A stretch of 64,000 nt of DNA from Winogradskyella tangerina (GTDB taxonomy: Bacteria; Bacteroidota; Bacteroidia; Flavobacteriales; Flavobacteriaceae), in the NCBI RefSeq assembly GCF_003260205.1, contig NZ_QERF01000001.1, positions 553,985 to 617,984 of the forward strand. The letters are read 5' to 3'. How positions within the stretch are numbered: the stretch's first letter is position 1; each line of letters starts with the position of its first letter. The translations under genes and the position numbers were made by a program. The notes beneath the pieces are model-generated. The model saw only the letters and a program-made list of their open reading frames with translations. It was not told where the DNA came from and did no database searches. Positions 5,480-61,010 of this stretch are shown here, one piece after another.

Positions 5480-5711
5480 TTTAGTTACTCCAAAGATGAG
5501 ACTTCCAAAAAATACAACGGCTATGATAATTAGCGTAAGACATCCGCCACCAACTAGCCAGCACCAATTTCGGGCAAACCAACTTTTTTGTCATTGTTCT
5601 TACATTTTTTTGATCGGTTTTAATAACTAAGTAATTCAATCATTGAATATGTTATAAATTAATGATAAAATGAATAAAGTTCATTTCAAAAATAGCCTTT
5701 AAACACTACTT

Positions 5712-6881
5712 TTGTTTCAAACAAAATATCCATTGAATCAACCCATTTCTATAACGGCAATTGCTTCCATTTCTCCCTTAGGAAATTCTAATGAGATGAT
5801 CTGGAATAATTACCTGTCTAACGCGCATTTCTTCAGCTTAAAAGAAGGAAAGTTAGTGGCTCAAATACCTTCTGAAATAAAGGATCAAATTCGAGAACTT
5901 AGAACATCGAATGCTAAATACAAACAACTCGATGATACCGTATTGTTTGCCATTTTTGCTGCGCGAAATGCCACTAAAGCTGCAGGTTGGAATTCTGATT
6001 CTAACTTCGGAATTAATATCGGTTCGTCTCGTGGTGCCACTTCCTTATTTGAAAAATACCACGAGCGTTTTTTAGAAAAGCAAAAGGCTGAAACATTAAG
6101 TTCACCAACCACAACTTTAGGTAATATCTCGTCCTGGGTAGCACACGATTTGCAATCTCAAGGCCCAGAGATTTCGCATTCTATAACCTGCTCCACAGCT
6201 TTGCACGCTTTGCTAAACGGAATTGCCTGGCTCAATGCTGGGATGTGCGATAAATTTTTGGTCGGCGGAAGTGAAGCACCGTTAACACCATTCACTATTG
6301 CGCAAATGCAAGCCTTGAAAATTTATGCTCGAGGAACAAATACTTCAGATAATTTTCCATGCAAAGCTTTAGATCTTCAAAAAACCGAAAACACCATGAT
6401 CCTTTCTGAGGCAGCTGCTATGGCCTGTTTAGAAAAGGGTATTCAGGATAATGCATTGGCTCAAATAATTGGTATAGGTTATGGCACCGAACTCTTAGAA
6501 CATAATGCTTCTTTGTCTACAAATGCCGAATGTTTTCAACGTTCTATGGCGATGGCGCTTGGTGATACAAATCCTGATGAAATTGATGTCATCATCACAC
6601 ATACTCCGGGCACCATTAAAGGCGATTTAGCAGAATATAATGCGATTAAAGCGATTTTTTGTAACAAAATTCCTGCTTTGACTACTAACAAAATACAAGT
6701 GGGTCACAGTCTTGGAGCATCCGGAATGCTCAGCCTTGAAATGGCCGTACTTATGCTTAACCATCAAATGTTTATTGACATTCCTTATTTGGATCAACCG
6801 ATTCCAAAAAAGATTTCAAAAATAATGATTAATGCCGTCGGATTTGGTGGTAATGCTGTGTCTGTTATTCTCTCAAAATGA
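5712..6881 (+). CDS. beta-ketoacyl-ACP synthase family protein (FabB/F-like KAS) within the biotin cluster
   Basis: The active-site Cys is in HSITCSTALHAL. The His motifs are ITHTPGT and QVGHSLGASG. It is 389 aa with a thiolase fold. Confidence 0.75.
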   Translation: MFQTKYPLNQPISITAIASISPLGNSNEMIWNNYLSNAHFFSLKEGKLVAQIPSEIKDQIRELRTSNAKYKQLDDTVLFAIFAARNATKAAGWNSDSNFGINIGSSRGATSLFEKYHERFLEKQKAETLSSPTTTLGNISSWVAHDLQSQGPEISHSITCSTALHALLNGIAWLNAGMCDKFLVGGSEAPLTPFTIAQMQALKIYARGTNTSDNFPCKALDLQKTENTMILSEAAAMACLEKGIQDNALAQIIGIGYGTELLEHNASLSTNAECFQRSMAMALGDTNPDEIDVIITHTPGTIKGDLAEYNAIKAIFCNKIPALTTNKIQVGHSLGASGMLSLEMAVLMLNHQMFIDIPYLDQPIPKKISKIMINAVGFGGNAVSVILSK

Positions 6882-7609: not shown

Positions 7610-9022
7610 ATGAATTTACTTATTCAACCAGACTTAGAGGGTTTCGGAGGACCAATGCTCCTCATATTTGTCGCCCTTTTTATAGTTCTCACTTTAATCA
7701 TTTTAATTAAACGCTACAAACGTTGTCCGTCAGACCGAATTCTTGTAGTCTATGGTAAAGTTGGTGGTGGAAAGTCTGCTAAATGTATTCATGGTGGTGC
7801 AGCTTTTATCATGCCAGTAATTCAAGATTATGAATATTTAGACCTTACACCAATCTCTATCGAGGTCAATCTGGTTAATGCCTTATCAAAACAGAACATT
7901 CGTGTTAATGTTCCGTCGCGATTCACTATTGGTGTTTCTACAGAGCCTGGTGTAATGCAAAATGCTGCTGAGCGTTTGTTAGGTCTTGGATTACAAGATA
8001 TTCAAGAGTTAGCAAAAGAGATCATCTTCGGACAATTACGTTTGGTTGTTGCTTCAATGGATATTGAGGAAATTAACTCGGATCGCGATAAATTCTTAAC
8101 CAATATCTCGCAGTCGGTAGAATCAGAATTAAAGAAAGTTGGTCTTAAATTGATCAACGTAAACATAACCGATATTGTAGACGAATCTGGTTATATCGAA
8201 GCACTTGGTAAAGAAGCTGCAGCGCACGCTATCAACGCCGCTCGTAAATCGGTTGCTGAGAAAAACAGAGATGGTGCCATTGGTGAAGCTAATGCGGTAC
8301 AAGATGAAAAAACACAAGTAGCTGCTGCAAATGCTAAAGCTGTTGAAGGTGAAAATACCGCGAAAATTTCGGTGGCAAATTCAGACTCTCTGCGTCGTCA
8401 GCGCGAAGCTGAAGCTGAGCGCGTGGCTATTGCTTCTGAAAAAGTTCAGGCTGCAAAAGCTTTGGAAGAGTCTTATGCTGCTGAGCAACAAGCGGAGGTT
8501 GCCAGAGCTGAACGCGAAAGATCATCTCAAATGGCAGACGTTATCGTTCCTACAGAAATCGCTAAAAAGAAAGCTGAGATCGATGCTGAAGCCGAAGCCG
8601 AGCGTATAAGAAGACGCGCAAGAGGTGAGGCGGATGCGATTTTATTCAAAGCACAAGCAGAAGCAAAAGGTTTATATGAAGTCTTAACCAAGCAAGCTGC
8701 TGGTTTAGATGAGATCGTGAAAGCAGCTGGTAACAATTCAAAAGATGCTGTTCTTCTATTAATCGCCGATAAATTACCTGAGTTAGTTAAAACTCAAGCT
8801 GAAGCGATTAAGAATATCAAGATTGATAAGGTTACCGTTTGGGAGAATGGCAATGGTGGTGATGGTAAGTCTTCTACATCAAACTTTATTTCAGGAATGT
8901 ATAAGGCTGTACCACCATTACAAGAGATGTTTAATATGGCCGGTATGGATTTACCTGAGTACTTAAAAGGTAAAGACAAAAAGGAAATTGATGCGGATAA
9001 CGCAGAAATTGACAACGCTTAA
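7610..9022 (+). CDS. flotillin-like SPFH/Band-7 protein (YqiK-like)
   Basis: It has an N-terminal TM segment, an SPFH domain, then a long Ala/Glu-rich coiled coil (AEAERVAIA..., EAEAERIRRRARGEADA). Confidence 0.85.
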   Translation: MNLLIQPDLEGFGGPMLLIFVALFIVLTLIILIKRYKRCPSDRILVVYGKVGGGKSAKCIHGGAAFIMPVIQDYEYLDLTPISIEVNLVNALSKQNIRVNVPSRFTIGVSTEPGVMQNAAERLLGLGLQDIQELAKEIIFGQLRLVVASMDIEEINSDRDKFLTNISQSVESELKKVGLKLINVNITDIVDESGYIEALGKEAAAHAINAARKSVAEKNRDGAIGEANAVQDEKTQVAAANAKAVEGENTAKISVANSDSLRRQREAEAERVAIASEKVQAAKALEESYAAEQQAEVARAERERSSQMADVIVPTEIAKKKAEIDAEAEAERIRRRARGEADAILFKAQAEAKGLYEVLTKQAAGLDEIVKAAGNNSKDAVLLLIADKLPELVKTQAEAIKNIKIDKVTVWENGNGGDGKSSTSNFISGMYKAVPPLQEMFNMAGMDLPEYLKGKDKKEIDADNAEIDNA

Positions 9023-43234: not shown

Positions 43235-43288
43235 AACTATAGGTTTATGGTATGGTTTTTGATAACTTTATATGAAAAAGCTATCATC

Positions 43289-45679
43289 ATGACTAAAACT
43301 CTACCTTCTATTGCTAAAATTTTCTTTATTTTTTTAATTTTCTCCGCTTGGGGCTTTTCACAAAGTGCTGAAGACATTGTGGATGACTATTCAGATTACA
43401 CTGAAGCACCACGAGAAGTGGCCTACGCCCATCTTAACAAATCAACCTATGTTGAAGGTGAAATGTTAGGCTTTACTGCCTACATTTTCGACAAATTTAC
43501 CAAAGAGCCAGCAAAAATGACTAAGAATCTTTATTGCACAATTAGCGATGAAGAAGGCAACGTTTTAAAGAAAAAACTGCTTAGAGTCAAAGATGCTGTA
43601 ACTTCAAATATTTTTGAAATAGACAGCTCTTTAGCCACAGGTACATATACCTTTAAGGCTTATACCAACTGGATGAAAAACTTCAGAGAGTCTAATCATT
43701 ACGAACAGACTTTTAAAGTTATTGATGCTGATAATTTGCAAGAAATCAAACCTATAAAGCCTGAAGATATAAATATAGATCTTCAAATTTTGGGCGAAGG
43801 TGGTCGTATATCATATAATCTTAATAACGTCGTAGGGATTATTGCAAAAAATCAATTTGGTCTAGGAATCAGTGGTGTTTCTGGTCGCATTGTTGATGCT
43901 AATAATAGTATTGTGTCTGATTTCAAACTGAATGAGGTCGGACTGGCAAAAACAATTCTCAATCCAGATCCAAAGGAAAAATACTTTGTTGAAATTGATG
44001 TATTAGACAAAGTAATAAAGAAGGAAATTAAAGACATTAAACCAATGGGGCTGTCAATGACCTTAAATGCCCTAAACAACAGTGCTACCATTAAGATTGA
44101 AGCCAATGATCTTTTCTACGAGAAATTTGGAGATCAAATTTTGAAATTGGCCTTACACGATGGAAGCGAAATAAAGATCACTGAATTTCAATTGAATGAG
44201 GATGGCTCCATCATATTTAATTACCCGATAAAAGAGCTATTTTCAGGTATTAACATCTTCACGGTTTTTACTGAAGATAACAAGCCATTATTAGAGCGTC
44301 TTCACTTTAATAAGAACGGTATTGATATGGCTAAAATTGAAAAAGTAGAAGTCAAAAAGAAGAAAGACAGTTTAGACATTAATTTAAAATTGAATAGTTT
44401 CAATTTTTCAAAATGGTCTAATGTGAGTATTTCTGTGCTCCCGAGCGCAACAAAATCGTACAATCACCATAATAATCTTCTATCACAATTATACATTCAA
44501 CCTTATGTAAATGGCTTTATTGAAAATGCATCTCAGTATTTTACCAACACAAGAGAAAGCAGCTACAATCTCGATCTTTTACTTTTAACTCAGGGTTGGA
44601 GTAGCTACAATTGGAATGACGTATTCAATTACAATGATCAATTTATTTATCCTTTTGAACGTGGCATTGACATTGTTGGAAATATAAACGGAGACAATCC
44701 AGGAACTTATGTGATCTATCCGATGCAAAACTCTAGTACGAGACTATTCGATATAAAAGAAGGTGAAAAGGTCTTTACTGTGAAAGAAACCTACCCTATG
44801 GATAAAGACATGCTGCAGGTAGGCTATATCGATCTGAAAAATAAAGGATTTACAAAAAAAGCTGCGCTTTCAGCGCAATATTTCCCTTCTGCATTTCCAG
44901 ATTTTGATAAGACATATAAAACTCCAACAGAGGTATTTTCGTCTCAAATGCCTTCGCTAAAAGACATAAAACTAGATAAGTCTTGGCTGCGTGGAGAGGT
45001 TCTTGATGAAGTAACCATTGAAGGAGAAAATGATTACACACGTGCCGAAGAATTAAAAAATAAGGTTGTGAATTCGCGAGTTGCAATTCCTGATGATCGT
45101 ATAAAATTGAGAAACCTCAGATTAGATATTTATCTACAGCGTTTAGGCTTTGTGACTCAGTTCGATTATTTCTCAGGGACTTTAAGCATCAACAACCCAA
45201 GAGTAAACTGGGGAACCACTGTGCCTCTAGTCTATCTAGATAATGCACTTTTAACATCGCCAGGTAGTGTTTCTGATTTTAGTGTTCTTACCTTCATTTT
45301 TATGCAAGATGTCGATTACATAGAGTACGAATTGTACGGTGTAGGTGGCGGTATTAGAGGAAATGCAGGGTTTATTAAAATTTTCACTTCGCCAGAATTT
45401 AAATTGAAGCGCAGTGGGCAGGAAGTTCAAACTTATGAAATCCCGTTAGCTTTCAGTGAGAATAAAGAATTTTATGTGCCAACGTACGGACTATACAATT
45501 CACCATTTTTCAACGAATACGGAACGATTGATTGGACACCTAATGCCACTATTAATAATGACGGAACCATAGATCTCTCGGTTTTAAACACCAAGAACGA
45601 CATTAAACTTTTTGTAGAAGGTATTGTCAATGATAACAATTTTGTATCACAAACTATCACTGTAGAATTACAAGATTAA
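43289..45679 (+). CDS. secreted hypothetical protein with an N-terminal MG2/alpha-2-macroglobulin-like domain (paralog 1)
   Basis: It has a signal peptide and the YAHLNKSTYVEGEMLGFTAYIFD motif. It is 810 aa. It is collinear with the downstream gene with clear pairwise similarity throughout. Confidence 0.5.
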   Translation: MTKTLPSIAKIFFIFLIFSAWGFSQSAEDIVDDYSDYTEAPREVAYAHLNKSTYVEGEMLGFTAYIFDKFTKEPAKMTKNLYCTISDEEGNVLKKKLLRVKDAVTSNIFEIDSSLATGTYTFKAYTNWMKNFRESNHYEQTFKVIDADNLQEIKPIKPEDINIDLQILGEGGRISYNLNNVVGIIAKNQFGLGISGVSGRIVDANNSIVSDFKLNEVGLAKTILNPDPKEKYFVEIDVLDKVIKKEIKDIKPMGLSMTLNALNNSATIKIEANDLFYEKFGDQILKLALHDGSEIKITEFQLNEDGSIIFNYPIKELFSGINIFTVFTEDNKPLLERLHFNKNGIDMAKIEKVEVKKKKDSLDINLKLNSFNFSKWSNVSISVLPSATKSYNHHNNLLSQLYIQPYVNGFIENASQYFTNTRESSYNLDLLLLTQGWSSYNWNDVFNYNDQFIYPFERGIDIVGNINGDNPGTYVIYPMQNSSTRLFDIKEGEKVFTVKETYPMDKDMLQVGYIDLKNKGFTKKAALSAQYFPSAFPDFDKTYKTPTEVFSSQMPSLKDIKLDKSWLRGEVLDEVTIEGENDYTRAEELKNKVVNSRVAIPDDRIKLRNLRLDIYLQRLGFVTQFDYFSGTLSINNPRVNWGTTVPLVYLDNALLTSPGSVSDFSVLTFIFMQDVDYIEYELYGVGGGIRGNAGFIKIFTSPEFKLKRSGQEVQTYEIPLAFSENKEFYVPTYGLYNSPFFNEYGTIDWTPNATINNDGTIDLSVLNTKNDIKLFVEGIVNDNNFVSQTITVELQD

Positions 45680-45684
45680 GTGGT

Positions 45685-48090
45685 ATGAAAAATATTCTTT
45701 TTGCTTTAATTAGTCTTACGGCTGGTATAGGAGCGTCATCTCTAAACGCGCAGAAAAAGCTCAATCCAATTGACGCCTATGAAACTTATGCTGAAGCGCC
45801 TCGAGAGGTAGCTTATGTACACCTTAATAAATCGACTTATATCAAAGGTGAAATGATCGGATTTACCGCTTATGTATTTGATAAATACACTAAGGAACCG
45901 TCTCAGCTTACTACAAATCTGTATTGTATCATTTCTAATAGTCAAGGCCAAACCGTTAAGAAAAAACTCATTAAGGTGAATCAAGGTGTTGCTTCGAACG
46001 TTTTTGATATAGATAGTACACTTTCAGATGGCATATTTACCTTCAAAGCGTATACCAATTGGATGCGCAATTTTGATGAACAAAACCACTTTGAACAAAC
46101 GTTCAAGGTTATTAATTCTGAAAAAGTAGACCTCATAAAACCTGTAAGTAATAAAGATATTAAAGTTGATCTTCAAGTTTTAGGCGAAGGTGGTCATATC
46201 CTTTACGATGTTCCGAATAACCTTGGCATTATTGCCAAAAATCAATTTGGATACGGAATTGCCAATGCCTACGGTTCTATTGTTGACAATACAGGGACCG
46301 TGATGACGGAGTTTCAACTTAATGAGGTCGGACTAGCAAAAGCACTTTTTACACCAGCACCCGATAAAACCTACACGGTTAATCTAGAGTTAAATAACAG
46401 AACAATCAAGCAGCCGATTTCTGGTATAAAGCTGAATGGTCTTATCATGAATTTAGTGCCATCACCAGACAAGATTACCTTATTGTTGCGCACTAATTCT
46501 AGATCACTAGAAAATCTTGCTGATAAATCTTTCAAACTTGGCTTGCACAATGGTCATAAAATGATAACGAATTCAGTGTCTATTAATAATGAAGGCATGG
46601 CAATTATAAGTTATCCTAAAAGTAAATTATTGGCGGGCATGAATATTTTCACGGTTTTCGATGAAAAGAACAATCCAATTCTCGAGCGACTTTATTTCAA
46701 CAAAGAAGGTATTAAACAGCAAAAAGTTTCAGATGTAAAATTCAAAACTTATAACGACAGCCTCGATATATCCTTAGGTATTAAGACTATTGATCCCAGC
46801 AAATTCTCAAATCTAAGTGTTTCTATTTTGCCTTCAGATACAAGATCATATAATCACAACAATAATATTTTGTCGCAATTATATATTCAACCGTATGTAA
46901 AAGGAAGTATTCAAAACGGTGCTCAGTACTTTTCAAACAATAGCAGAGAAACCAACTATAATTTAGATCTTTTACTTCTTACTCAAGGTTGGAGCAGTTA
47001 TGATTGGAATTTAATTTTTACGAGCAAATCAAAGGCATACAATTACTCTTTTGAACGCGGTATAGATATCGTTGCTAATATCAATAATAAGAAGTCTGGC
47101 GCATACATTGTTTATCCGCTCGCCCAAAATAACACGCAATTATTTGATGTTCCGAAGAATGAGAATGCCTTTACGATCAAAACATCATTTCCTAATGAAG
47201 ACGATATTCTAAGAATAGGATACCTCAATACGGTTAAAAAGGAATTTAAGGCCAAACCCTCCTTGTATTTGCAATCTTATCCGGCCGAAATTCCAGAATT
47301 TGATGGCAATATGTCTATCATTACTGAAAATTATACCCTTAATGAGACTTATATAAATCCTAACCAGGTGAACAATGCAAGGGACAATGCGAGCAAGGTC
47401 ACCAAACTCGATGAAGTTTTTCTTGAGGGCAAAATTGATAGGGAAACAGAAATTGAAAAGCTCAAGGAACTAGCAACTTACAAACGATATGATTATGTAA
47501 AGGAGAATATAAAGTTAAGAGGTATGCGACTTGATATTTATTTACAACGGCTCGGATATTATACAGAGTTTGAATATTTCTCGGGATTACTGATCATAGA
47601 AAATCCAAGAGCTAGTGGCAAAGATCCTGTACCTCTGATTTATCTGAACGACGCTCTACTAACTACTCAAGGTAAAGAATCGGACTTCAGTATTTTAACC
47701 TTCATCACTATGGATATGGTAGATTATTTCGAGTATGAACCTTATGGCATAGGCGGCGGATTACGAGGAAGCGCAGGATATATAAAAATATACACAACTC
47801 CAGGCTTGCCCGTCAATAAAAAAAGAGATCTTACCGCTACTTTTGATCTGCCTTTGAGGTTTGATAAGCCCAAGACCTTTTATACGCCAAAATACCAGAC
47901 GTTTAATTCTGATTTTTTCCTTGAGTACGGAACCATCGCATGGCAACCCGACCTCACCGTTGACGAAACAGGTTTAGCTGACTTCAAAATCTTGGATACT
48001 TACACGAGCTCAATTGATCTTTATATTGAAGGAATTGTGAACGATAACGAATATATTTCACAAAGAATAACGATCGAAAAGGCCAATTAA
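45685..48090 (+). CDS. secreted hypothetical protein with an MG2-like domain (paralog 2)
   Basis: YVHLNKSTYIKGEMIGFTAYVFD, LLLLTQGWSSY and ERGIDIV are all shared with the upstream gene, so this is a tandem duplication. Confidence 0.5.
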   Translation: MKNILFALISLTAGIGASSLNAQKKLNPIDAYETYAEAPREVAYVHLNKSTYIKGEMIGFTAYVFDKYTKEPSQLTTNLYCIISNSQGQTVKKKLIKVNQGVASNVFDIDSTLSDGIFTFKAYTNWMRNFDEQNHFEQTFKVINSEKVDLIKPVSNKDIKVDLQVLGEGGHILYDVPNNLGIIAKNQFGYGIANAYGSIVDNTGTVMTEFQLNEVGLAKALFTPAPDKTYTVNLELNNRTIKQPISGIKLNGLIMNLVPSPDKITLLLRTNSRSLENLADKSFKLGLHNGHKMITNSVSINNEGMAIISYPKSKLLAGMNIFTVFDEKNNPILERLYFNKEGIKQQKVSDVKFKTYNDSLDISLGIKTIDPSKFSNLSVSILPSDTRSYNHNNNILSQLYIQPYVKGSIQNGAQYFSNNSRETNYNLDLLLLTQGWSSYDWNLIFTSKSKAYNYSFERGIDIVANINNKKSGAYIVYPLAQNNTQLFDVPKNENAFTIKTSFPNEDDILRIGYLNTVKKEFKAKPSLYLQSYPAEIPEFDGNMSIITENYTLNETYINPNQVNNARDNASKVTKLDEVFLEGKIDRETEIEKLKELATYKRYDYVKENIKLRGMRLDIYLQRLGYYTEFEYFSGLLIIENPRASGKDPVPLIYLNDALLTTQGKESDFSILTFITMDMVDYFEYEPYGIGGGLRGSAGYIKIYTTPGLPVNKKRDLTATFDLPLRFDKPKTFYTPKYQTFNSDFFLEYGTIAWQPDLTVDETGLADFKILDTYTSSIDLYIEGIVNDNEYISQRITIEKAN

Positions 48091-49033: not shown

Positions 49034-50140
49034 TTATTTTCCAGAGAAAATCTCCTTCAATTGAGTTACCATATTTCCATTACCTGAGACGGTGATCTCA
49101 CCAATTTTCTCAGCGATCTTTTCAACATATTCCATCTCTTTAAGTTTGTATAACATATCATTCTCCTCCATCAATTTGGCAGTGTTTAACAAACTACGAG
49201 TAGAAGCTGTTTCTTCACGTCTCATAATTACGTTAGCTTGTGCTTTCTTTTGTGCAACTAAAACCTGATTCATGATGTCTTTCATTTCACCTGTTAAAAT
49301 CACATCTCTTATACCGCAATTTAATACGGTAACACCGAGCTTTGATGCACTTGTCTTAACGTCTTGAAATACAGCTTCTGCAATATTATCTTTACGTTCT
49401 AACAATTCATCTAAAGTGTAAGCACCAACATAAGCACGCAATACCAATTGCATTGTAATGTATAATTGCTTTTCATAATCCTTGTTTTCTAAAAGCGCTT
49501 TTTCTACATCAGTAACTTTATACTGTGTATAAAAGTTAATTCTGATAGCTGCTTTGTCCTTAGTTAACAATTCCTGACCTGCAATTTCTAATTGCAACTG
49601 ACGTAAATCGACTTTTGCAATTTTTATTGAAGTATCATTTCTCCAGAAACGGTAAGTACCACCTTTGAGTGTCTTGGTGTAGACATCATCGACTAAAAGT
49701 ACGGCCTTTTCGTAGGCTGCGACTTCAAACGTTCTGATGTACTTACTTACTTCGTAATTGCTAAAGATTGACTTGTCGAGGTTCTCTGTGATGTAGATCT
49801 TACTGAGATCTACACGGATGTAATCACGTTCAATTAAACCCTTCCAGTAGACGAAACGACCAGCCGGCAAAACAGTTTTAAATATGCCTTTTTCATAAAG
49901 CAATACCAATTCACCGTCCTTTACTTCAACAACATCAAGCATAGCAGCTAAAACCTCATCTTTTAATAAGATCTCTAATGCTATTGGCGCTGTAAACATA
50001 GACGCTAAGTCGTACATAAATACACGCTGCTTGTAACCAAGCCAGTGTACTCCTTGGGTAATAACTCTAAGGTAATCACCTCTTTTGAATACTAAACCTA
50101 CGTATCCTGCATTAATTCTTACTCGTAACATTGTTTTCAA
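49034..50140 (-). CDS. SPFH/Band-7 (slipin-like) family protein
   Basis: The C-terminal SPFH-like region (KAAIRINFYTQYKV...GIRDVILTGEMKDIMNQVLVAQKKAQANV) matches the family. No N-terminal TM segment was detected. Confidence 0.55.
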   Translation of the reverse strand: MKTMLRVRINAGYVGLVFKRGDYLRVITQGVHWLGYKQRVFMYDLASMFTAPIALEILLKDEVLAAMLDVVEVKDGELVLLYEKGIFKTVLPAGRFVYWKGLIERDYIRVDLSKIYITENLDKSIFSNYEVSKYIRTFEVAAYEKAVLLVDDVYTKTLKGGTYRFWRNDTSIKIAKVDLRQLQLEIAGQELLTKDKAAIRINFYTQYKVTDVEKALLENKDYEKQLYITMQLVLRAYVGAYTLDELLERKDNIAEAVFQDVKTSASKLGVTVLNCGIRDVILTGEMKDIMNQVLVAQKKAQANVIMRREETASTRSLLNTAKLMEENDMLYKLKEMEYVEKIAEKIGEITVSGNGNMVTQLKEIFSGK

Positions 50141-50588
50141 TTTTTAATTAAACATCATTTTTGCCAACTAAGGCGAAATGGTAATTCATGTAACGGACGG
50201 ATTACCAGCTTCAAACGTTTACCGACGAGTTCAGTAATTATTTGAAGTTTATCTTCATTTTTCCTATTCGATTTAAAAAATAGCAGATCGCAAATCATCT
50301 CATCCATACGGAATAACTAATTGTAAACCCTGCCATGATTAGTGCATTAACTCCTAGTTGAAAACCAGCAAATTTTGCTTCATTATCAACCTTCGATCAA
50401 TGGAGTAATCACTTTGTGAGATTACAGTTTTGCCATTCAGAGTATATCTCAGATTGCTTGTTATTGAACACTAATTGTTACTATTAAAGCCAATCTACAA
50501 TCTACTATTTTGTCATTTTTAAAAAGCAGTATAACGACTGCGTTGCTATCAGTTTTCCAAGTTGATAAGCTTAGGCGGTTTGTAATAA

Positions 50589-50670
50589 CCATCCTGCATT
50601 TTAAGTGCAGTGCTCTAACCAACTGAGCTACAAAGTCTAAAATGGTGACTTTGACAGGAATCGAACCTGT
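50589..50670 (-). other. tRNA-like element A in permuted order
   Basis: The 3' half (50643-50670) has the T-arm ACAGG-TTCGATT-CCTGT, acceptor 3' strand CAAAGTC, discriminator A and CCA. Five nt downstream on the minus strand is the matching 5' half (50589-50637): acceptor GACTTTG, D-arm GCTCAGTTGGTTAGAGC, anticodon arm CTGCA-CTTAAAA-TGCAG (anticodon UAA), and variable loop GATGG. The acceptor strands are exactly complementary. Confidence 0.5.
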
Positions 50671-50678
50671 GCAATTTT

Positions 50679-50764
50679 CCTATTGTTCTGACCTACTGAA
50701 CTACTTCCCCAATTAACGGTATATCTTAGTGGGGAAGGCGGGAATCGAACCCACGACCTATAGA
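50679..50764 (-). other. tRNA-like element B in permuted order
   Basis: The 3' portion (50730-50764) has anticodon-stem strand TCTAT, variable loop AGGTC, T-arm GTGGG-TTCGATT-CCCGC, acceptor CTTCCCC and discriminator A. It precedes a 19-nt linker and then the 5' portion (50679-50710): acceptor GGGGAAG, D-arm GTTC-AGTAGGTCA-GAAC, and ATAGG. Confidence 0.45.
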
Positions 50765-50906
50765 ATCGCGACTATTTTTTGGCTAACAGTCAGAGCCTTC
50801 AAGTCTAGTTGTATATAAAAACATCATACATCTCTGCAACGAATTATACAATAGTGCTATACCGAAACACCCAACAAGACCAGCTTGATACCTTCATTAT
50901 TATTGC

Positions 50907-51109
50907 ACCTCTTATCAGATTCGAACTGATACTCCCACATCGGTGGACAGATTGGCTCTAAATGCGCTTCCCTACTTTTAATCCTGTTAATTTCGGTGCT
51001 TCTGCAAATTCTATTCATTAGCAAGCGCGTCACTAACAACATCATCCAATCACTCCGTGGCTACGATAAGGATCTTTTTCCACAGCTCTTCCCTTTGAGC
51101 TAAAGAGGT
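50907..51109 (-). other. split tRNA-like element E
   Basis: The acceptor 5' strand ACCTCTT plus D-arm GCTC-AAAGGGAA-GAGC lie at 51085-51109. About 150 nt downstream on the minus strand, at 50907-50931, lie the T-arm ATCAG-TTCGAAT-CTGAT and the complementary acceptor 3' strand AAGAGGT. Confidence 0.3.
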
Positions 51110-51471
51110 GTATATTTTAAAAAAGCGTTCTGAGAATACCTCCGCTTTAGAATAAGCTTTCCTAAGATTATAGCCGTAGCCCTTCCTTAGTTTTCCACGC
51201 TCATCTCATTGCTAGAGAATCGCGTACTTATTCGATGCCTAATACATTGTAGCTGTTCGGCAACTTAGACTTGGCCTGCATAGTGGTACTTAGACCACGC
51301 TTTGCAATTACGAGGGTTGGCTCCCTCACCATTAGTAGGCGTCCTCATTGCGAGGCGGCCTATTAGAATGTTCACCGCACAGTAAAGGTTTGCGGCCTTT
51401 ACTGCCCCATATATTGCAATGGGTTTAGGCAACTACTAGCTGCTACAATGTCCGAAGTCTTTCGCTTCTTT

Positions 51472-51546
51472 CTGTTTTTAAATAACAGCGCTTCTACCAA
51501 ATTGAGCTATCCTGAAATACTTATCAGGACTAGGACTCGAACCTAG
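51472..51546 (-). other. tRNA-like element C in permuted order, anticodon loop ATTTAAA (anticodon UUA, ochre-reading)
   Basis: The 3' part (51522-51546) has the T-arm CTAGG-TTCGAGT-CCTAG, acceptor TCCTGAT and discriminator A. Five nt later comes the 5' part (51472-51516): acceptor TTCAGGA, D-arm GCTC-AATTTGGTA-GAAGC, and anticodon arm CTGTT-ATTTAAA-AACAG. Confidence 0.45.
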
Positions 51547-52082
51547 ACTATAAACTTCGACCTAGGAGAAGGGCTTCGGAAATGGCTTCGTAGATTTTTG
51601 CCTACAAAATACCAACCTTCTCCATGCATGTTTCCCAACACACGGTATGTTGAGCTACCGAACGCTTTCGGGTCGGGTACCTCTAATACTGCAACAAGCT
51701 CCGCAAGGCTGGATGACCTACGCGTAACCTATTACTACAACTTTTCCTATTGATGTCTCCATCTCAAGCCTCATTAGCATTGGCTATAAATTCTAACCAG
51801 TCTCGGCGGTCGCCCCTGACTAATCGTAACCTACGTTTGTTGCTTGCTTACCTGCACTATTTTCCGAAGAAAACAGTCTCCACCTACAGTGTCTGTAAGC
51901 AGATTTATCCTTGTTACCAAGTTTATCTGAGGACGATAAGCCGCCCCATCTTACCTTAACCGAAATTAAGGTTTGATGATTTTTTTAGTATGAAATCCGT
52001 TTTTCAGAATTTCATAATATTTCAATGATCGTCATTTAAAACAAACAGACCGATAACTGTATGTTTAAATGTTTTTACTTTA

Positions 52083-52151
52083 ATGTTTATCAAGATTCGA
52101 ACTTGATCCTAGCGGATATACCTCTCGTGCGAGCCATTACACTATAAACAT
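52083..52151 (-). pseudogene. tRNA-like element D, 69 nt, canonical order but with a degenerate anticodon arm
   Basis: The acceptor ATGTTTA/TAAACAT is perfectly paired. The T-arm TCAAG-TTCGAAT-CTTGA is perfect. It has a D-arm-like GTG-TAATGGCTCG-CAC. The 20 nt between the D-arm and T-arm do not fold into an anticodon stem. Confidence 0.4.
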
Positions 52152-52208
52152 CTCAGTAAACAGAGACAAACCAGGTTTGCCTCTGCTTTTGGTCTCCTTT
52201 CTTTTTAT

Positions 52209-52826
52209 TTACAATAAATTGTTTAACCTATTCTGAAACCAACTTTTTTGTTGTTTTTCAGCCTCTTTCTTAGCCTGAGTTTCAGTGGCTTTGTCCTCGT
52301 TAACTTTTGCTTGTCTTTTTTTAGTAACTCGAGACAAAACCCCTTCAACGAAATGAATAAAATCATCATTCAAGGCTAATTGCTTTGCTTCTTTGAGGAC
52401 TTTTTCTGCCTCTTCATACTTGGCTAAGCTTTCGTACAGTTGTCCTTGAGCAAGTGCAATACTGGCTTTACCAACACCTTTAATTGTCTTAGCAAAGTCG
52501 ATCAATTTTTGAGCTTCTTCATAATCTTCATTATTGATCAATACTCTGATATAATCTGGGTAAATATCTACCGCTTCAATATTGCTTGCCAAGGCACGTT
52601 CGAAGTAGGATTTTGCTGTTTCGTAATCTCCTAATTGCTCATAGTGCACTTTTGCCATCAAATGCAAAGCCTTCGTATTTTCTGGGTCGTAAGCCAAGGC
52701 ATAATTCAAGGCTTCAACCGCTTTCTCCAATTCCCATGGGTAAGCTTCAATAACTCTAAACAAATGGGTGTTATATAAATTATTTTCCATCATATTAGTT
52801 ATTGTACTGAATAAATTATTCAGCAA
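52209..52826 (-). CDS. tetratricopeptide-repeat (TPR) protein
   Basis: It has several 34-residue TPR-like helical repeats (AKVHYEQLGDYETAKSYFERAL..., LAQGQLYESLAKYEEAEKVLKEA) and a Lys/Glu-rich C-terminus. Confidence 0.65.
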   Translation of the reverse strand: MLNNLFSTITNMMENNLYNTHLFRVIEAYPWELEKAVEALNYALAYDPENTKALHLMAKVHYEQLGDYETAKSYFERALASNIEAVDIYPDYIRVLINNEDYEEAQKLIDFAKTIKGVGKASIALAQGQLYESLAKYEEAEKVLKEAKQLALNDDFIHFVEGVLSRVTKKRQAKVNEDKATETQAKKEAEKQQKSWFQNRLNNLL

Positions 52827-60068: not shown

Positions 60069-61010
60069 TTAATATACAGTACTTATTAGTTTCTTATAAC
60101 TTAAAGTACTTTCACTATCTACTAAAAACTTTTCAAATCTTTCTTGACTAGATAAACTTCTAGTATTAAATCTAGCTGCAAATTCATCTAGATAACGTTC
60201 TAAATGCTTTTCGCTAACTTGGTGGTAAATTCCATACAAACCACGCTTTAGTACACTCCAAAAGTTCTCAATCGTATTGGTATGGACTTGTCCATCCACA
60301 TAAATATTCAAAGCGTGTTTTACACTTTCATGGGTGTAATACTTTTTTAGATGATTATATACTGGCGCTTCGTCAGAATAAATCGTTGATCCTTGCGGAA
60401 CGTGTCTCGCTATAAATGCTCCCATATTGCGCAACTCCGAATTAGGGACGTGTTTTAAAACTACATTACCGTTTCGCTCAATGATACCAACAACCGTTTT
60501 CTTAGGCGTATAAGGTTTACCCTCATTGGTAAAGTTTTTATCCTCTAATGAACGGCGTTTGTTAATATGCTTATTCTTTTCACGACCACCAATATAGGCT
60601 TCATCAACTTCTACCATTTTATCCTTTCCCAATACCTGTGGTGCTTTGTCCTTTAGCATTTCTCTAATACGGTGCAAAACAAACCAAGCCGTCTTTTGAG
60701 TAATACCTAAATCTAAAGCTAATTGTACCGAACTGATACCCTTTTTATGAGTTGTGGCTAAGAATATAGCTGCAAACCATATTCTTAACGAGATTTTAGA
60801 GCCATGAAATATAGTACCGACCTTTACAGTAAACTTTTTATAACATTCGCTATTGGCGCATTTATGACCCCTATTGGTTTTATATGTACGCTCACTACCA
60901 CAATGAGGGCAAACAGGTGTTCCGTTCCAACGGATCTGCTCGTAATACTCTATGCAAGTGTTTTCGTCCTTAAAGTAATCTAAAAGCTGTGGTAGAGACT
61001 TGAAATTCAT
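60069..61010 (-). CDS. IS1595-family transposase (ISXO2-like DDE)
   Basis: It has an N-terminal zinc ribbon (CPHCGSERTYKT...HKCANSECYKKF) and a DDE_Tnp_IS1595 core (YIGG...IYSDEAPVYN...ENFWS). Confidence 0.9.
   Translation of the reverse strand: MNFKSLPQLLDYFKDENTCIEYYEQIRWNGTPVCPHCGSERTYKTNRGHKCANSECYKKFTVKVGTIFHGSKISLRIWFAAIFLATTHKKGISSVQLALDLGITQKTAWFVLHRIREMLKDKAPQVLGKDKMVEVDEAYIGGREKNKHINKRRSLEDKNFTNEGKPYTPKKTVVGIIERNGNVVLKHVPNSELRNMGAFIARHVPQGSTIYSDEAPVYNHLKKYYTHESVKHALNIYVDGQVHTNTIENFWSVLKRGLYGIYHQVSEKHLERYLDEFAARFNTRSLSSQERFEKFLVDSESTLSYKKLISTVY

Follow-up and report, generated by a model that had tools for sequence, protein, structure and literature searches.

How does a bacterial chromosome come to carry tRNA-like sequences whose 3′ halves precede their 5′ halves, and are these genes for tRNAs, remnants of such genes, or something else? 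The question is raised by a block at positions 50141-52208 of a 64-kb stretch of DNA from Winogradskyella tangerina (contig NZ_QERF01000001.1), hereafter the window, in which an earlier sequence-only reading found no open reading frame (ORF) and three elements, A, B and C, laid out like circularly permuted tRNA genes, with a rearranged tRNA array as its fallback. The block is indeed free of ORFs in this sense, the only ones inside it being of 50-69 aa. The answer that we favour is that A, B and C are very likely circular permutations of the tRNA shape, in which the strand enters through the T-arm, passes along an acceptor helix capped by a loop, and exits past the D-arm in B and past the anticodon arm in A and C. 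Because the domains are permuted and the acceptor is loop-closed, the RNA that hosts them would in all likelihood display a tRNA elbow and an acceptor-like helix without free ends. We are likewise confident that the block as a whole is an island of four minus-strand noncoding RNA genes: a tRNA-like gene (T), an RNA of the GOLLD family of ~850 nt that holds C, an RNA of ~205 nt (E), and an RNA of ~615 nt that holds B and A. All five named elements lie on the minus strand.

The structural features of the three domains are similar, differing mainly in where the permutation falls. Element A (50594-50670, minus strand) is permuted at the junction of variable loop and T-arm and keeps its anticodon arm; it runs from the T-arm ACAGG-TTCGATT-CCTGT through CAAAGTC and ACCA, a 5-nt loop TTTTA, GACTTTG and the D-arm to the anticodon arm CTGCA-CTTAAAA-TGCAG. 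Element B (50680-50763, minus strand) is permuted at the anticodon loop, and consists of a closing stem strand CTAT, the sequence AGGTC in the place of a variable loop (and typical of that loop in tRNAs), the T-arm, CTTCCCC, a 20-nt loop, GGGGAAG, the D-arm and the second closing stem strand ATAG. Element C (51472-51546, minus strand), which sits in the linker between the two domains of the GOLLD RNA, has the order T-arm, TCCTGAT, 6-nt loop, TTCAGGA, D-arm, anticodon arm. The sequence-only reading had placed these elements nearly to the base and with the right order of parts; its statement that the acceptor strands pair exactly holds for A and B, with 7 bp each, and fails for C, in which 6 bp are accompanied by a U-U mismatch.

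Computational searches see these domains only in pieces; among the checks proposed by that reading was a run of ARAGORN. In their native order A, B and C give no contiguous cloverleaf, and the sole 'tRNA' that ARAGORN reports in the whole window is T. When the halves are re-ordered in silico, the same program calls A a tRNA-Leu(taa) cloverleaf and C a tRNA with the anticodon tta, and it calls B a tRNA when given an artificial anticodon loop; a re-joined cloverleaf is thus obtained from A and C as they stand. The Rfam 'tRNA' match at 50566-50637 covers the 5′ half of A alone, without the T-arm. Partial matches to YrlA (Rfam RF02553; 32.7 bits for A, 32.7 bits for B at model positions 23-85, and 24.3 bits for C) and to the permuted form of transfer-messenger RNA (tmRNA) span exactly the T-arm, the acceptor hairpin and the D-arm. 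The T-loop motif GTTCGANTC is also more frequent than by chance: the window has six copies where 1.16 are expected, a count reached in 0 of 100 shuffles, and five of the six are inside the block, every one on the minus strand.

The permuted acceptor hairpins are maintained by compensatory changes; the permuted topology with complementary acceptor strands that was read from one sequence is both correct and kept among relatives. We retrieved 80 orthologous Flavobacteriaceae loci via the gene for a protein of the SPFH family that follows the block, and tested B and A together in an alignment of 75 sequences (A1) that covered the closing stem of B, both T-arms, acceptors and D-arms, and the anticodon arm of A. 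Pairing was found in 96.0% of 2834 cells, compared with 35-46% when the partners were slid by 1-3 columns, and changes on both sides of a pair occurred in 33 of 41 pairs. The covariation score was 0.481 against 0.181 after shuffling, with 0 of 500 shuffles as high, a statistic that is inflated by the phylogenetic relatedness of the sequences, which makes the slid-partner control the more meaningful of the two. The acceptor of B covaries in 7/7 pairs, with 4-6 pair types each (variants include CTTCCCC/GGGGAAG, TCCCGAA/TTCGGGA, CGGGACC/GGTCCCG and CATAAAC/GTTTATG), as does its closing stem (CTAT/ATAG, CTGT/ACAG, CAAT/ATTG); in A, all four stems (T, acceptor, D and anticodon) show covariation. 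Element C was found in 17/17 flavobacterial GOLLD copies that could be aligned; its T-stem and acceptor are paired in 85% of cells against 38-56% with slid partners, and compensatory changes occur in all 7 acceptor pairs, the two distal ones being weak.

The fold of these domains is conserved and the 'anticodon' is not. The anticodon loop of A retains U at tRNA position 33 and a purine at 37, and the 'anticodon' itself differs freely among orthologs (TAA, CAT, TTT, GTT, GTA, AGG and others). B has no anticodon loop at all, and among 16 orthologous copies of C the anticodon arm is missing from 6. Most lineages have an acceptor hairpin of 5-7 bp that is closed by a loop of 4-9 nt and lacks CCA. 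An ACC(A) sequence comes after the acceptor in 12 of 65 copies of A and in 7 of 16 of C, although at these loci just 26 of 694 tRNA genes have an encoded CCA end. The sequence-only reading had suggested a search for bulge-helix-bulge (BHB) motifs in the flanks. No BHB leader-trailer helix was found in the alignments inspected (A1, A3 and the GOLLD alignment), and the flanks turn out to be conserved parts of larger RNAs: those of A are not complementary, those of B pair in a simple 4-bp stem continuous with the host RNA, and those of C are GOLLD linker.

The first of these larger RNAs, the host of C, lies at 51124..51971 on the minus strand, with its 3′ domain and linker at 51124-51624 and a 5′ domain that extends to ~51971, a limit that is approximate. 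In a permissive scan the Rfam model RF02032 matches it from end to end (model positions 1-416 of 416 at 51124-51624; 127.3 bits, E=1.7e-34), and the copy in a distant genus (L181) scores 121.5 bits (E=5.4e-33), compared with 138.2 bits for the phage GOLLD of L044 and 207-288 bits for other phage GOLLDs. Because scores of 127 and 121 are below the Rfam gathering score of 150, the flavobacterial copies escape annotation; judged by its sequence, this RNA is a divergent new member of the known family that current annotation misses. It has the ~800-nt layout of variable 5′ domain, linker and conserved 3′ domain (the 5′ boundary being approximate), and a 5′ motif, GATAAACTTGGNAACAAGGATAAA, is common to the window copy and the phage GOLLD of L003. 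The linker insertion that the match leaves unaligned contains element C, and the module of the phage GOLLD in L044 takes the same place. Among the orthologous loci GOLLD behaves as a cassette that is present or absent, being found in 18 of 80 (BLAST span ~51112-51950). GOLLDs are known to hold tRNAs or pseudo-tRNAs (PMC12286853; PMC12990946; PMC6582537), and it has been speculated that GOLLD cages enclose the tRNAs of the linker (PMC12286853); in the accessible literature we found no report of a permuted linker topology. An ordinary tRNA would be excised from the linker, whereas a permuted domain would stay tethered there, which would fit the speculation that the cage encloses a tRNA.

The second host is a structured RNA of ~615 nt (50275..50890, minus strand) that starts at TATCAAGCTGGTCTTGTTGGGTGTTTC (50890) and ends in a long-range helix, in which 50490-50510 pairs with 50275-50299, followed by a T-run. 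Its order is a structured 5′ domain (33 predicted pairs, 16 of them compensatory), B, A, and a 3′ domain (38 predicted pairs, 29 compensatory). The segment with B and A is present in 79 of the 80 orthologous loci by BLAST, and the 5′ motif also identifies the RNA in 79 of 80. Scans with Rfam at E<=10, made for the window and for a Maribacter-like locus, assigned no family to this RNA or to E, and ruled out ROOL, OLE, tmRNA, RNase P, 6S and Flavo-1 as identities for either; nor did a literature search find a description of the ~615-nt RNA in the searchable literature. It is probably a new RNA family.

A further 80 loci from metagenomes, found by scanning for the 5′ motif and hence independent of the SPFH gene, extend this picture. 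Of 74 such loci, 56 have two permuted modules in the same places and 6 have three, mostly with 5-bp acceptors and short closing loops. A third permuted module is also present in the ~615-nt RNA of Aquimarina loci (L149, L154, L158, L166, L188, L190), and in Tenacibaculum (L164, L169, L170) a variable arm and an extra T-arm without acceptor follow module A. In another set (L130, L131, L133, L135, L144, L146, L150), the sequence GCGGAAATGGTAGACGC, an anticodon arm and a long variable arm give B the 5′-half character of a type-II tRNA ahead of the T-arm of A, so that the RNA in these loci resembles a string of tRNAs in which an acceptor strand has its partner in a neighbour and not in its own unit. 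When viral contigs were scanned, the 5′ motif of the ~615-nt RNA gave one match (L194) and the core motif of E gave none, scans that argue against a phage origin of E and of the ~615-nt RNA.

The most constant neighbour of the ~615-nt RNA is the gene that follows it, which encodes a stomatin-like SPFH/Band_7 protein (49034..50131, minus strand; Pfam Band_7 9e-29; PDB sequence matches to stomatin, QmcA and HflK). The protein is 95% identical to one in a Winogradskyella genome, and an exact-sequence look-up returned nothing on record. In 53 of the 54 metagenome loci with enough downstream sequence, a same-strand SPFH homolog (43-93% protein identity) is found 570-940 nt past the start of the RNA; the single exception, L194, is a 15.9-kb IMG/VR contig in which the 1.2 kb downstream lack an SPFH homolog and tRNAs are absent upstream. 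Upstream of the RNA, at least three tRNAs are present in 25 of 46 metagenome loci, E in 10 of 46 and the GOLLD core motif in 1 of 46. Given this difference between the downstream and upstream linkage, the pair of RNA and SPFH gene is the invariant unit, and the tRNA array, GOLLD and E are optional upstream additions. A spacer of ~140 nt (50132-50274, minus strand) separates the terminal T-run of the RNA from the SPFH start codon; it is conserved in Winogradskyella and some other genera (AAACTTCAAA...TTTGAAGCT and GGTAATCCGTCCGTTAC...ATTACCA...CGCCTTAGTTGGCAAA) and may form a separate small leader structure.

With such linkage it is worth considering whether the SPFH gene has in the ~615-nt RNA a very large cis-acting 5′ leader, an attenuator or processing platform whose tRNA-like domains would serve as sensors or as entry sites for RNase P. 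The same-strand linkage persists even where the protein is only 43-57% identical, and the conserved long-range helix and T-run resemble a terminator ~140 nt before the start codon. Yet ~615 nt is very long for a structured leader, the terminator-like end is constitutive in sequence with no alternative pairing identified, and the RNA also ends tRNA arrays and has GOLLD and E upstream of it, as expected of a stable RNA gene. The linkage may equally mean a partnership between RNA and protein; OLE RNA and its membrane protein are one such case (PMC3413148). We regard a cis-acting leader as a rather unlikely explanation.

The same locus in relatives bears on whether A, B and C could be the debris of a lost tRNA array. 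In 73 of the 80 orthologous loci tRNA genes lie upstream of these RNAs, typically as a tight array of 10-19 with spacers of 3-8 nt; the array occupies a fixed chromosomal locus across many Flavobacteriaceae genera and always ends at the ~615-nt RNA and the SPFH gene, GOLLD being an optional passenger. From the window, L114 and L115 it is gone, leaving only T, itself a degenerate tRNA-His paralog. These facts speak for non-functional debris, and the sequence-only reading, with a rearranged tRNA array as its fallback, was right about the locus. The refuting outcome that it named, ordinary tRNA genes at this site in relatives, is borne out only by half: such genes are there, and yet A, B and C remain permuted in those same array-bearing relatives and across genera, and compensatory changes uphold the pairing of their acceptors. 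Debris is therefore very improbable. As to origin, we infer that the domains came from junctions of tandem tRNA genes in the array that occupies the locus in relatives; the 10-19 gene arrays themselves and the lineages in which B has an anticodon arm and a type-II-style long variable arm bear on this.

Nor are the modules at all likely to be bona fide Y RNAs (YrlA) acting with a Ro60/Rsr protein. Of all Rfam families YrlA scores highest over A, B and C, the parts of its tRNA-like domain (T-arm, acceptor-like hairpin, D-arm, closing stem) are all found here, and two phage loci match it over the full model length, L003 at 37 bits and L204 at 38 bits. However, scores of 24-41 bits are below the gathering score of 69; the window matches, at 24-33 bits, cover the tRNA-like core only (model positions 23-85 or 30-81) and no Ro-binding stem; a scan of 20 window ORFs, among them every one within 8 kb and every one of 400-560 aa, detected no TROVE/Rsr domain; and the modules are internal to RNAs of 615 and ~850 nt. 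Least credible of all is that these are functional circularly permuted tRNA genes, with a transcript circularised or re-joined to an aminoacylatable tRNA as in the nucleus of the red alga C. merolae, since the 3′ half that comes first with complementary acceptors, the complete cloverleaves of un-permuted A and C and the ACCA encoded after the acceptor of A are set against an anticodon that is free to vary in A, absent with its loop from B and lost with its arm from the 6 copies of C, closed acceptors that in most orthologs have 5-6 bp, a loop of 4-9 nt and no CCA, flanks that are conserved GOLLD or ~615-nt RNA instead of complementary leader and trailer, and, to our knowledge, the lack of any known BHB splicing endonuclease in bacteria.

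What then might such domains do? By analogy with other RNAs that carry them, they would act as tRNA mimics and not as translational adaptors, serving as handles for a factor that recognises the tRNA shape, be it RNase P, a tRNA-modifying enzyme or another partner; alternatively, they could be rigid elbow modules for RNA tertiary assembly. The idea of RNase P arises because the acceptors of A and B in the window have 7 bp, because ACC(A) follows the acceptor in some copies, and because Mycobacterium smegmatis YrlA offers a precedent: with its 7-bp acceptor it is a substrate of RNase P in vitro, and in the cell it is both cleaved and given a CCA tail (PMC4201824). YrlA RNAs with shorter stems are not cut by RNase P (PMC4201824). 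It is possible, if doubtful, that RNase P would cut the loop in those copies that combine a 7-bp acceptor with an ACCA-containing loop, such as A in the window and C in many relatives, and the two products would then stay joined through the acceptor helix, as they do in two-piece tmRNA and in M. smegmatis YrlA. Cleavage of the short closed hairpins is unlikely.

Bringing these elements together, we propose tentatively, and with less than balanced confidence, that the ~615-nt RNA is an undescribed class of large RNA with two or three permuted domains and a partner of the SPFH protein, either within a ribonucleoprotein or as an RNase P-gated leader; that flavobacterial GOLLD would display a tethered tRNA mimic in its cage; and that RNase P would yield two-piece RNAs, possibly CCA-tailed, from the copies with 7 bp and ACCA. 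Several points weigh against the account given here and should be read together. The role as a tRNA mimic is argued purely from analogy, and RNase P cleavage is not the conserved role because ACCA and 7-bp acceptors are lineage-specific. The boundaries and co-transcription of the RNAs are predicted from conservation and from the T-run after the long-range helix, and scans for a sigma-70 consensus and for the Bacteroidetes promoter TTG...TAnnTTTG turned up neither in a form that accounts for the units. The window copy of C is imperfect, with its U-U acceptor pair and an irregular D-stem that has an extra base. To these may be added the GOLLD score beneath the gathering threshold, the inflated shuffle statistics, and the tight SPFH linkage that a cis-acting leader would also explain.

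Permuted modules are not confined to the flavobacterial loci. We scanned 113 phage contigs that have a GOLLD core motif, after masking with ARAGORN and with a decoy control, and obtained 19 real matches against 8 decoy matches. This procedure was adopted because a generic-module covariance model (R1) was unusable for a census: it returned 347 matches, among which junctions of tandem tRNA genes scored equally well, an artefact against which caution had already been advised (PMC4201824). The discriminating feature is the complementarity of the acceptor and not the model score. Convincing viral modules are rare (L003/L079/L091, L044 and L064), with L007 and L097 at 6/7 pairs; they lie in the linker in L044, and ~220-250 nt past the 3′ end of GOLLD in L003/L079/L091, L064, L007 and L097. 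A YrlA-like module also occurs in a phage tRNA array without GOLLD (L204). The pattern GGTTCGANTCC...AAGCAAAAGNC, used to look for additional module-bearing GOLLD linkers, brought up loci to which Rfam gives no GOLLD match, and the reading of L195, L203 and L210 as having canonical tRNAs in a GOLLD linker was dropped. The phage contigs have other features of their own. In L003 a tRNA with a ~65-nt insertion in its D-loop (6284-6420, plus strand) directly follows the GOLLD, and each tRNA or permuted module of its array is preceded by a hairpin-containing leader of ~35 nt (AAAATATTGRGAAAACTGAT..TTTCAGTA). The 93-kb contig L044, in which the GOLLD linker holds a permuted module, also has a full tmRNA (5489-5882, minus strand, 113 bits) and >20 tRNAs, all with encoded CCA.

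The remaining two genes of the island are not permuted. E (50906..51109, minus strand) is a tRNA-like RNA of ~205 nt in the normal order, in which, as had been noted from the sequence, the D-arm and T-arm stand ~150 nt apart, with ACCTCTT and the D-arm at 51085-51109 and the T-arm and AAGAGGT at 50906-50930. Its parts are an acceptor stem, a D-arm, a GUGG/CCAC stem with a 20-nt loop, an inserted domain of ~100 nt closed by GAUUGG/CCAAUC, a hairpin like a variable arm, and a T-arm. E is very highly conserved in 31 related loci, the acceptor stem being invariant, and its consensus fold has 50 predicted pairs, 19 of them compensatory; it is an unexplained tRNA-like RNA. In four loci (L173, L180, L181 and L182) E lies upstream of GOLLD and not downstream, and E and GOLLD are therefore independent cassettes. 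T (52081..52152, minus strand) is a degenerate tRNA-His-like gene that has a good acceptor stem and T-arm and a shortened anticodon loop of ~5 nt. ARAGORN labels it 'tRNA-Tyr(ata)', and homologs elsewhere are mislabelled Tyr(ata), Phe(aaa) or '???'; Rfam at E<=10 gives T no tRNA match. Homologs are present in 24 related loci, three of which (L136, L141, L146) have a normal GTG (His) anticodon loop, and T is conserved beside a normal tRNA-His gene in several genera (for example L123, 4071-4219). T is a tRNA-His paralog with a shrunken anticodon loop.

The island is set in an ordinary Bacteroidota chromosome, with genes for MetRS, ferritin, a protein with a tail for the type IX secretion system, the SPFH/Band_7 protein and a TPR protein around it; the immediately flanking genes of the ORF list are at 49034-50140 and 52209-52826, both on the minus strand. 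A BLAST comparison of the block with 50,697 phage genomes gave no match. Elsewhere in the window, two adjacent plus-strand ORFs at 43247-45679 and 45685-48090 (810 and 801 aa) have zero Pfam matches, a transposase gene of the IS1595 family lies towards the window end (60069-61010, minus strand), and a second SPFH-family gene, resembling flotillin FloT, is found at 7610-9022 (plus strand), distant from the RNA island.

Large ornate bacterial RNAs are rare, and the functions of GOLLD, ROOL and OLE are long-standing puzzles. To these puzzles the locus offers a GOLLD lineage that annotation has missed, whose linker has a tethered tRNA mimic and not an excisable tRNA, and which thereby bears directly on the published idea that the GOLLD cage encloses a tRNA. 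It also offers, in a ~615-nt RNA that is widespread in marine Flavobacteriaceae and has a near-invariant protein neighbour, a handle for genetics and pull-downs.

It is informative to compare these RNAs with the systems that they most resemble. The flavobacterial GOLLD shares with known members the end-to-end model match, a conserved 3′ and a variable 5′ domain, a length of ~850 nt, a place among tRNA genes and a tRNA-related insert in the linker, and differs from them in that its setting in the window is chromosomal and not evidently prophage, and in that the insert is a permuted, closed tRNA-like domain instead of an ordinary tRNA or pseudo-tRNA. The ~615-nt RNA is similar in size to ROOL (581 nt on average), adjoins tRNA genes and GOLLD, and is linked, as is OLE, to a membrane-associated type of protein; in contrast to both, it has tRNA-like domains, which have not been described for ROOL or OLE, and neither family matches it in Rfam at E<=10.

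For the permuted domains themselves, the closest likeness is between B and the tRNA-like domain of YrlA (PMC4201824), which has an identical topology of closing stem, T-arm, acceptor-like hairpin and D-arm, and acceptor length varies in both. Unlike YrlA, the domains described here lack a Ro-binding helix or motif, have no rsr gene beside them and are placed inside much larger RNAs, and A and C keep an anticodon arm, being permuted at the variable region. Two-piece tmRNA likewise combines a T-arm, an acceptor 3′ strand with CCA, a loop and an acceptor 5′ strand in one bacterial transcript, although the models for permuted tmRNA and beta-tmRNA give weak partial matches (26.5 bits against a gathering score of 47) and the G3:U70 pair is replaced by G3-C70 in B and C3-G70 in A; neither a tag reading frame nor pseudoknots were identified, although no search aimed at them was made. 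Circularly permuted tRNA genes are a feature of Cyanidioschyzon merolae and some archaea; these too have the 3′ half upstream of the 5′ half, give a cloverleaf when un-permuted, and likely originated by tandem duplication, whereas the bacterial domains have no BHB, no conserved anticodon and often no anticodon arm, and have an acceptor closed by a short loop within larger conserved RNAs of a bacterial host. The locus shows that bacteria have the permuted tRNA topology in places other than tmRNA and Y RNAs, as a structural module that can be reused and that probably arose at the junctions of tandem tRNA genes.

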